Shown here one piece after another: positions 1-302 of a stretch of 393 nucleotides of DNA. Position numbers and translations under genes: made by a program. The notes under the pieces were generated by a model. That model had not been told where the DNA came from. It searched no databases and saw only the letters and a program-made list of their open reading frames with translations. Each line of letters starts with the position of its first letter. The first letter of the stretch is position 1. The stretch is taken from assembly GCF_003334255.1 (NCBI RefSeq), contig NZ_QOWU01000248.1; one strand, written 5' to 3'. The DNA comes from Escherichia coli (GTDB taxonomy: Bacteria > Pseudomonadota > Gammaproteobacteria > Enterobacterales > Enterobacteriaceae).

Positions 1-93
1 CACCGGGGTTTACCGCGTTAACGGAGCGCGGCGTTGTCCCCTCATGGTCGCTGGTCCGGTGCGATGGTGGAAGAAACTGGATTTTGTTGCAAC

Positions 94-108
94 TGACAAT
101 CATTATCA
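94..108. promoter_or_regulatory. Fur-box-like site (TGACAATCATTATCA)
   Basis: Matches the Fur-box 7-1-7 palindrome TGATAATnATTATCA at 13 of 14 defined positions. The extended 19-mer at 89-107 matches GATAATGATAATCATTATC at 15 of 19. The regulated transcript and its direction are not evident in the window. Confidence 0.4.
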
Positions 109-194
109 TTTTGCCGGGTCCTTTCCGGCGATCCGGGCCGTTACGGGGCGGCGACCTCGCGGATTTTCACTATTTATGAAAATTTTCCGGGATC

Positions 195-206
195 CATGTC
201 CGGTTT
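195..206 (-). repeat. Inverted copy of the reiterated motif (minus-strand AAACCGGACATG)
   Basis: Plus-strand CATGTCCGGTTT at 195-206 is the reverse complement of AAACCGGACATG. It sits in a variant CCGG-GATC-CATG-T-CCGG arrangement (187-203) resembling the 281-302 dyad but with a GATC inserted. Confidence 0.4.
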
Positions 207-252
207 CTCTGCAAGTTAACCATATGAAAAATATAAAAACATGCTTTCCATG

Positions 253-263
253 AACCGGACATG
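253..263 (+). repeat. Copy of the reiterated motif AACCGGACATG (half-site-like), direct orientation
   Basis: Exact 11-mer AACCGGACATG at 253-263, identical to 283-293 inside the dyad; start-to-start spacing to the next copy is about 30 bp (roughly three helical turns). Confidence 0.4.
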
Positions 264-280
264 CGCAAAAAATAGACACT

Positions 281-302
281 AAAACCGGACATGACCGGTT
301 TT
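281..302. promoter_or_regulatory. 22-bp near-perfect dyad (AAAACCGG-ACATGA-CCGGTTTT), candidate operator for a dimeric DNA-binding protein
   Basis: Read directly: the 281-288 AAAACCGG arm is the exact reverse complement of the 295-302 CCGGTTTT arm, with a 6-bp spacer ACATGA; 20 of 22 positions are self-complementary. It contains one copy of the reiterated AACCGGACATG motif and lies 39 bp upstream of the GTG start at 341. Confidence 0.45.

Follow-up and report, generated by a model that had tools for sequence, protein, structure and literature searches.

Results

Organisation of the locus

The window, by which we mean the whole stretch of 393 nucleotides of Escherichia coli DNA that was analysed, lies between the lysis genes and the terS-terL-portal-head-tail block of a lambdoid prophage, as seen in the RefSeq context of L002 and in the annotation of PhiR12_1; over the window, the PhiR12 phages are 99% identical. 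Judged by its sequence, it very probably represents the cosQ-cosN-cosB packaging site of a lambda-like E. coli prophage, with the repeats in cosB as the sites of TerS (Table 1). The cos subsites were compared with the depositor-annotated records of phage 21 (OL657228) and phage 434. In sequence and in offset, cosQ agrees exactly with the cosQ annotated in phage 21, and it recurs in enterobacterial relatives with a lambda-like cosN. The flanks of the cohesive end, TTACG and CGCGG, also match those of phages 21 and 434, and nicks are predicted before position 146 on the top strand and after position 157 on the bottom strand. Positions 146-190 are 95.6% identical to bases 1-45 of lambda, and the blastn likeness to lambda and 21 ends right of position 190. 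Since nucleotide similarity stops past this point, the cosB that follows belongs to another type.

Table 1. Features of the window, numbered from its first letter and from the left cohesive end, followed by the retention of individual tetramers in the 47 close relatives
Feature	Position	Strand	From left cohesive end	Remarks
Conserved upstream non-coding module	1..112	no strand		CCGG 3, 56 and CATG 43; independent of packaging type
cosQ (GGGTCCT), packaging-termination subsite	116..122	+	-30 to -24	
cosQ-cosN spacer	123..145	+		CCGG 125, 133; CCGG 114 just left of cosQ
cosN cohesive end, GGGCGGCGACCT	146..157	+	+1 to +12	identical in phages 21 and 434, where it is bases 1-12
I2, spacer between cosN and cosB	158..192	+	+13 to +47	contains CCGG 187
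R3, predicted TerS site, TCCATGTCCGGTTTCT	193..208	+	core, +51 to +60	core ATGTCCGGTT at 196-205; CATG 195, CCGG 200
I1, IHF-like site, TTTCATATGGTTA	217..229	-	+72 to +84	
R2, predicted TerS site, CGCATGTCCGGTTCAT	250..265	-		inverted relative to R3; CCGG 255, CATG 260
R1, predicted near-palindromic double site	280..303	both		AAAACCGGaCATGaCCGGTTTT at 281-302; CCGG 285, 295 and CATG 290
terS start	341..393 (start of gene)	+	GTG at +196	product of 169 aa in the source genome
Six R-core tetramers				retained in 96-100%
R3 tetramers	195, 200			retained in 100%
R2 tetramers	255, 260			retained in 96-98%
R1 tetramers	285, 290, 295			CCGG 285 retained in 100%, CATG 290 in 96%, CCGG 295 in 85%
CCGG in I2	187			retained in 98%
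CCGG in cosQ-cosN spacer	125			retained in 85%
CCGG in cosQ-cosN spacer	133			retained in 32%
CCGG in upstream module	3, 56			retained in 23%, confined to relatives that have the left module
CCGG left of cosQ	114			retained in 2%
Other CATG	43, 240, 249			retained in 11-28%

Megablast gave a match of any kind in 1945 of 5426 E. coli genomes; in many of these, a match covers position 1 to about 77-122, alone or together with further parts of the window. The upstream module (1..112) also adjoins other cos sites, of lambda type (L176), 21-like (L177) or unrelated (L178, L179), and keeps CCGG 3 and 56 there. An Rfam scan of the window at E<=1 gave no match. Folding of the upstream module as RNA yielded a z-score of -0.36, despite the complementary CACCGG (1-6) and CCGGTG (56-61), and we therefore claim no RNA structure for it.

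Repeats in cosB

A repeat search found CATGTCCGGTT(T) at 195-206; 253-263 and 282-293 are perfect copies of it in inverse orientation, and 290-301 is a direct copy with one mismatch. R2 and R3 form a perfect inverted repeat of 11 nt, the perfect direct and inverted repeats of cosB are 11-12 nt long, and R1, a member of repeat families D1, D3, I1 and I2, consists of a perfect copy on the minus strand (280-295) and a copy with one mismatch on the plus strand (288-303). Within the 190 kb examined, there are three exact matches to the 10-mer ATGTCCGGTT, all of them in this cosB. The sites were also scored with a weight matrix derived from nine sites, taken only from Salmonella, Citrobacter, Enterobacter and Leclercia relatives; the window's own sites were left out of the matrix to avoid circularity. 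At a reporting threshold of 4, the matrix scored 18.2 at 193-208 (plus strand), 20.0 at 250-265 (minus), 20.9 at 280-295 (minus) and 13.4 at 288-303 (plus), and the top three scores exceed those of all 300,000 background positions. One further match, at 49-64 with a score of 5.7, is no better than chance (0.36 such matches expected per window), and no site scoring 4 or more was seen at CCGG 114, 125, 133 or 187.

The arrangement of these sites follows that of lambda cosB, in the order R3 - IHF-like site - R2 - R1. The centres of R3 and R2 are 57 bp apart, as against 57 bp in phage 21 and 58 bp in phage 434. The CCGG of R3 falls at +55 to +58; in lambda R3, the stretch contacted by TerS is +55 to +63 (PMC9026076, a review). 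R1 has the orientation of R2, with its perfect copy on the minus strand, in all four loci that have an R1 (the window, L109, L115 and L090). Since R1 thus points like R2, unlike its counterparts in lambda and 21, the lambda model is not transferable unchanged to R1.

The IHF-like site I1 has two mismatches to the consensus WATCAANNNNTTR, a match that on its own is not significant, and the number of consensus matches across the window (5, with 3.6 expected) is uninformative. At the same offset, the consensus is perfect in four related loci (L109, L110, L112, L116) and has one mismatch in four others (L090, L111, L113, L114); the annotated I1 of the lambda-type phage 434 (74-86) has two mismatches as well.

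CCGG and CATG counts

The earlier note had drawn attention to this DNA for its surplus of the tetramers CCGG and CATG. All ten positions given for CCGG (3, 56, 114, 125, 133, 187, 200, 255, 285, 295) and all six given for CATG (43, 195, 240, 249, 260, 290) are exact, and the contexts were also described correctly, with TCCGG or CCGGA at 7 of the 10 CCGG and ACATG or CATGT at 4 of the 6 CATG. The expectation of about 1.5 per tetramer is right under a mononucleotide model (1.48 for CCGG, 1.50 for CATG), while shuffles that preserve dinucleotides give 2.39 for CCGG (P<2e-4) and 1.67 for CATG (P=0.003). The idea that both tetramers might be just as frequent genome-wide was checked on the source replicon, E. 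coli DETEC-S792 (window match 100%), with 150 kb of chromosomal DNA outside the prophage as background. The host chromosome has 5.15 CCGG per kb, or about 2.0 per window, and 2.83 CATG per kb, or about 1.1 per window; at least ten CCGG were found in 0 of 148,833 host windows of 393 bp, and the enrichment stands.

The prophage itself is richer in CCGG, which favours an explanation by local compositional bias or chance, helped by post hoc choice of the tetramer and with no site-specific function. CCGG density is 9.5 per kb over the whole prophage, above the host value, and 12.7 per kb in its late genes, and 1.3% of prophage windows reach at least ten CCGG; in the shuffles, some tetramer reaches a count of ten in 5.9% of cases. 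Because CCGG was singled out only once the counts were known, its count by itself carries less weight than it seems to. However, the CCGG richness of the prophage is confined to the late genes, with their GC content of 56%, while the window, at 50% GC, lies outside them. When the R sites are masked, 6 CCGG are left compared to 3.2 expected from the prophage (P=0.11) and 1.7 from the host (P=0.009), and 3 CATG compared to 0.95-1.27 expected, which is not significant. The real signal is thus to be seen in the repeated 10-12-mer rather than in the tetramers. Outside the R sites, chance could cover the 6 CCGG and 3 CATG but no more; it fails on the three exact copies of the 10-mer, on the fixed offsets from cosN in several genera and on the covariation with TerS (see below), and for the right half of the window the weight matrix, the rarity of the 10-mer and the conserved offsets refute it. 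As an account of the whole excess, we regard it as unlikely.

The three to four copies of ATGTCCGGTT account for 4 of the 10 CCGG and 3 of the 6 CATG. Since the R sites hold both tetramers, CCGG and CATG are both parts of one asymmetric sequence and not independent signals. The earlier note's framing in terms of palindromes was not supported: what is repeated is the asymmetric ATGTCCGGTT, relatives do not keep the C of CATG at R3 (they have GATG or AATG), and a whole sub-family carries TTTCCGGTT, without any CATG. Its suggestion of binding sites was supported in cosB, where the predicted TerS sites lie, but the matrix found no extra degenerate sites in the left half; beyond the three copies annotated at the time, only CCGG 295 belongs to a real site, as the second half of the near-palindromic R1, and for the others no sign of a binding site was found.

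The asymmetry of the unit also bears on the proposal that CCGG and/or CATG are clustered at cos as methylation or restriction targets of a modification system. Both tetramers are palindromes of the type II style, and the prophage encodes two methyltransferases, one of them in the lysis region, some 1.3 kb upstream of cos. However, one of the two passes a curated model of phage N6-adenine methyltransferases and the other has only sub-threshold matches to adenine models, while CCGG has no adenine; what is conserved is ATGTCCGGTT and not a palindrome; relatives lose CATG; and the observed-to-expected ratio of CCGG under a Markov model is similar in the prophage (1.15-1.34, with an ordinary 1.17 where it is CCGG-rich) and the host (1.10). 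Of all the alternatives considered, this one seems to us the least credible.

Exchange of modules between phages

The phages Stx1_9793 (L176) and PhiR5_1 (L177) share positions 1-190 of the window, i.e. the left module, cosQ, cosN and I2. In L176 this segment is followed by lambda-type R sites and a lambda-type Nu1, and in L177 by 21-like R sites and a 21-like TerS; the 420-bp equivalents contain 4 CCGG and 1 CATG in L176 and 3 CCGG and 3 CATG in L177. This swap shows that the tetramer excess belongs to the cosB/TerS module. CCGG 3, 56 and 125 are present in both phages, and CCGG 187 in the lambda-type L176. As they occur beside other terminases, these four CCGG are not specific to this one.

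The tetramers outside the R sites fall into three groups. CCGG 125 and 187 are inherited from a common lambda-like cosQ-cosN-I2 backbone: the TTTCCGG that contains CCGG 125 is common to the lambda-type cos of DLP12 and of the Stx1 phage, as well as to many relatives, and CCGG 187 is common to lambda and 434, with CAGA, CAGC or CCTG in its place in distant relatives of this TerS type. CCGG 3 and 56, together with CATG 43, are parts of an upstream module common to phages of any packaging type. CCGG 114 and 133 and CATG 240 and 249 are unconserved, lineage-specific changes.

This grouping is relevant to the idea that the TCCGG sequences at 54-60, 124-128 and 132-136 are accessory, R4-like weak contacts for TerS that aid recognition of cosQ and cosN at termination. 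GTCCGGT at 54-60 matches seven bases of the R core and underlies the matrix match mentioned above, TTTCCGG at 122-128, next to cosQ, is identical to the TTTCCGG core of a sister sub-family, and the left 145 bp hold 5 CCGG compared to 0.75-1.4 expected (P 0.001-0.013 before correction for the post hoc choice of tetramer). However, the match at 54-60 does not rise above chance level, CCGG 3, 56 and 125 stand equally beside lambda-type and 21-like TerS genes, and only 2% of close relatives keep CCGG 114 and only 32% CCGG 133, which also speaks against the extra sites that the earlier note suggested for the left half. We consider accessory contacts very unlikely, and attribute the surplus CCGG of the left 145 bp, which is not fully explained, to chance and shared ancestry.

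Conservation in relatives

The close relatives used for Table 1 are 79 viral contigs with a full upstream region and a TerS that is 99% identical, which reduce to 47 distinct upstream sequences; variation among them is mostly in the spacers between R sites. Relatives with 60-80% identity in TerS come from Klebsiella, Salmonella, Citrobacter, Enterobacter and Leclercia, and all share the layout. A scan of one genome per species gave no match in Salmonella enterica. In 10 loci from several genera, a TCCGGT core on the plus strand lies at +53 to +55, an IHF-type site at +72 to +84 and an inverted core at +108 to +110, with the third core, where present, at +137 to +152 on the minus strand. This layout agrees with the arrangement in lambda and 21 (PMC4669245, PMC9026076). 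Distant members of the family have a simple cosB, with tandem TTCCGGTTCCGGTT just 5' of terS (Pseudomonas loci, Enterobacter mori and Aeromonas phiARM81ld). In these simple-cosB relatives terS begins at about +79, and the deposited record of phiARM81ld begins with a lambda-like end, GGGCGTTAGACC.

These distances also help to judge whether the repeats could be operators for a regulator of late or terminase-operon transcription instead of packaging sites. Operators typically take the form of inverted repeats placed just before a gene start, and a gene for a Rha-family regulator lies immediately upstream. Against this, the distance of the sites is fixed from the cohesive end and not from the start of terS, which varies from +148 to +196; in the deposited phiARM81ld record, 53-67 bp separate the site from the end; the sites co-vary with the TerS helix; and where the same upstream module is combined with another TerS, other repeats occupy that place. 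An operator function is accordingly improbable in the extreme, and the repeats are best read as predicted TerS sites.

TerS and its covariation with the R core

The C-terminal region of TerS, the part of Nu1-type proteins that serves oligomerisation and TerL binding, matches Pfam PF07471 (Nu1) at residues 49-150 (E=1.4e-18) and PHROG 57 and 1790; no NCBIfam model matched the protein. The folds closest to the modelled TerS domain are the DNA-binding domains of RppC and TerS and the winged helices of MerR, and residues 3-23 align with the helix-turn-helix of sigma-factor region 4. When the full protein and its N-terminal domain were each used as a profile against solved structures, no TerS was retrieved, only generic helix-turn-helix matches. 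The predicted recognition helix of the window's protein is TDRQLRRLQK, and residue 20 lies within helix 15-22 of the modelled domain (pLDDT 84).

Covariation was examined in 85 distinct combinations of N-terminus and upstream region. Wherever an Arg20 TerS goes with a TCCGGTT core, the base directly before the core is G, in four enterobacterial helix variants as well as in the distant environmental locus L165; L153, the sole other Arg20 protein, is without a TCCGGTT core. Where residue 20 of TerS is Asp, Asn, Ser, Thr or Lys, the base before TCCGG is T in every case. In L165 both tandem units are changed, to GTCCGTGTCCGGTT as against TTCCGGTTCCGGTT. Proteins with a QQAV helix, as opposed to the (D/E)R type to which the DRQL of the window belongs, are mostly without TCCGG and have GGGTTGCGGGTT-like repeats instead. 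As independent events are few, with probably two gains of Arg20, we take the covariation as supportive but not as proof. CCGG is the invariant centre of the predicted R site throughout this TerS family, and the ATG that gives rise to CATG is specific to the sub-family with Arg20 in the predicted recognition helix.

Discussion

Our analysis points to the excess of CCGG and CATG as being, with high probability, mainly the by-product of a cosB that carries three to four copies of a predicted TerS site with the core ATGTCCGGTT, a reading that goes hand in hand with the identification of the window as cos. As an anomaly the excess has little weight, since it would be the ordinary signature of terminase-binding repeats in cos; the cosB/TerS module that gives rise to it is of somewhat more interest.

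The likeness to lambda is extensive. The cohesive end and cosQ are identical and I2 is nearly so; in both systems R3 occupies about +50 to +65, followed by an IHF-like site near +72 to +86 and, about 57 bp from R3, by an inverted R2; terS starts at about +190 to +196 (+191 in lambda, +196 in the window); and both TerS proteins combine a winged helix at the N-terminus with a Nu1 domain at the C-terminus and are encoded by a gene that overlaps that of the large subunit. What differs is the specificity element itself. The R sites of lambda are of the CGTTTCCTTTCT type, unrelated to ATGTCCGGTT, and the N-terminal domain of the window's TerS has no detectable sequence similarity to that of lambda, the Nu1 match covering residues 49-150 only. 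In lambda, R1 is oriented like R3 and lies about 43 bp from R2, whereas R1 of the window is oriented like R2, is near-palindromic and lies 30 bp from it.

Phage 21 shares the architecture and the R3-R2 spacing of 57 bp, and its R core CATGTCGG (the annotated R2 and R1 read TTTCATGTCGGaCC) resembles the CATGTCCGG of the window with one base fewer; this likeness of the cores may reflect common descent. The TerS of phage 21 (MKVNKKRLAEIF...) is nevertheless lambda-like, while that of the window is of a MATQ type, and the two systems also differ in the orientation of R1 and in the position of the core, which is 3 bp further from cosN in phage 21. Although the R cores look alike, we rejected the phage 21 type for the window, as blastn similarity is limited to cosN and I2.

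The window has the complex form of cosB. The simple form of N15, with a single R3, is paralleled by relatives of this TerS family, and the relationship between N15 and Monarch (PMC4669245) is mirrored by the simple-cosB relatives with tandem TTCCGGTTCCGGTT. One of the related loci (L114) has exactly the cohesive end of N15. The R3 of N15 is GAGGTTGTTGTT, however, and the helix of its TerS differs from that of the window. With both R core and helix different, membership in the specificity classes of lambda, 434, 21 or N15 was rejected; Gifsy-1 and phi80 lay outside this comparison. A cos type of the K-12 cryptic prophages, as the name 'Qin Nu1-like' might suggest, was also rejected, the nohD and cosB of DLP12 being of plain lambda type.

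The cos sites of PICIs with Rpp (EcCICFT073-type) resemble the window in having a lambda-like cosQ and cosN, a specificity element at the position of R3 and a winged-helix gene, but are without the repeated R sequences that the window has. The full Nu1 C-terminal domain and the terL, portal and head genes of a complete prophage identify the protein encoded here as a TerS and not an Rpp.

The mechanism by which terminase-binding repeats act in cos was worked out decades ago for lambda. From the identity of the locus, the structure, conservation and geometry of the repeats, their covariation with the protein and the fold of its domain, we infer binding of TerS, binding of IHF and cutting of cos at this locus. 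By analogy with lambda, a bend introduced by IHF at I1 would bring R3 and R2 opposite each other, allowing a dimer of TerS winged-helix domains to dock on R3/R2; the docked TerS would in turn anchor the large subunit for the nick in cosN, about 50 bp to the left, and R1 would add affinity.

On balance, though by a small margin, we favour the idea that TerS proteins of the MATQ type and cosB sites with a TCCGGTT core make up a so far undescribed packaging-specificity class, extending from enterobacteria to Pseudomonas, Aeromonas and alphaproteobacteria, whose recognition is partly readable from sequence. Residue 20 of TerS would set the base before TCCGG, with Arg specifying G and Asp, Asn, Ser, Thr or Lys specifying T; the core would be determined by residues 15-16, TCCGG by Asp/Glu-Arg and a TGCGG-like sequence by Gln-Gln. 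If this recognition code is true, the preference of a TerS with R20D or R20N would be predicted to shift from G (ATGTCCGGTT) to T (ATTTCCGGTT).

This cosB/TerS type is common in E. coli prophages, and its arrangement of R1 differs from that of both lambda and 21. The searchable literature, which excludes subscription journals, yielded papers on lambda, 21, N15 and PICIs only, with no experimental study of this type of cosB. If the proposed class is real, packaging specificities that do not cross-react with those of lambda, 21 and N15 would be predictable and engineerable, and it would be predictable which prophages and satellites hijack each other's terminase. The covariation between amino acid and base could thus guide work on packaging specificity, on the compatibility of helpers and satellites, and on vectors of the cosmid type.

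A conserved module upstream of cosQ adjoins different cos types

The non-coding module at the left of the window recurs, about 90% or more conserved, in many prophages of E. coli and in one or more of Salmonella, and it adjoins at least four different cos/TerS types. Rfam gave no match for this module, and its RNA fold was not significant. In VT1-Sakai and 1720a-02 (L178, L179), the module and cosQ are as in the window and are followed by a different cos, with the cohesive-end region GGGGCGGGCGGGCGCGG, the repeats CATCATCATCATGATGG and GATGATGAT, and an unrelated small-terminase-like protein. 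These two phages represent a further cos type sharing the left module with the window.

Features of the window and its prophage
Feature	Location	Strand	Length	Context
DNA methyltransferase gene	L002 (source replicon) 17770-18705		311 aa	among lysis genes, ~1.3 kb upstream of cos
Non-coding module	window 1-112 = L002 20001-20112		~110 bp	just upstream of cosQ
'Hypothetical protein'	window 170-292 = L001 (PhiR12_1 record) 4170-4292	minus	40 aa	PhiR12_1 record annotation
Direct repeat TTGTGAGGTGAG / TTGCGAGGTGAG	window 310-321 and 327-338			just upstream of terS GTG start

The second copy of the direct repeat provides the Shine-Dalgarno sequence of terS. The 'hypothetical protein' of the PhiR12_1 record spans I2 to R1 of cosB and almost certainly represents a spurious gene prediction across a protein-binding region. 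The methyltransferase gene is missing from the otherwise similar lysis region of PhiR12_1, and its product matched adenine methyltransferase models only below threshold.

In the late genes, from terminase to tail (L002 20401-40393), CCGG has a density of 12.7/kb. The early and lysis regions (L002 1-19900) have only 5.7-6.9/kb, and the host has 5.15/kb. The density follows GC content (56% in the late genes versus 50%) and does not reflect a specific enrichment.

Relatives of the cosB and cohesive ends

The R1 region of the window (284-312, GGACATGACCGGTTTTGTTGT) resembles the left end of N15, GGACATGAGGTTGTTGTT (L006 41-60), which takes in the mapped N15 R3 (bp 48-59), and in both cases terS starts at a similar distance (54 bp in the window, 47 bp in N15). 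Feiss reportedly proposed an R3/R1 unequal crossover as the origin of the simple cosB of N15, and the resemblance may be a trace of this event.

The cohesive end of the Salmonella relative L112, GGGCGGCAGCGT, differs from that of lambda at positions 8, 9 and 11, the same differences as published for Gifsy-1 (PMC4669245). This agreement with the published description of Gifsy-1 raises the possibility that Gifsy-type cos sites are linked to the TerS family of the window.

Simple-cosB members of this family (L093-L095, L100, L180-L182, L164, L108 and L172) carry a tandem TTCCGGTTCCGGTT directly upstream of terS, in which two cores overlap with an offset of 6 bp, and have neither an inverted R2 nor IHF sites, an arrangement which suggests that the stoichiometry of binding differs from that of the complex form. 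In alphaproteobacterial and environmental relatives (L105, L107, L170, L171 and L173), the predicted TerS recognition helix reads (L/I)TQQAV instead of (L/I)(T/S)(D/E)R, and the TCCGG core is mostly missing, with GGGTTGCGGGTT-like repeats in its place. The pairing of this helix with these repeats may represent a second position of protein-DNA covariation.
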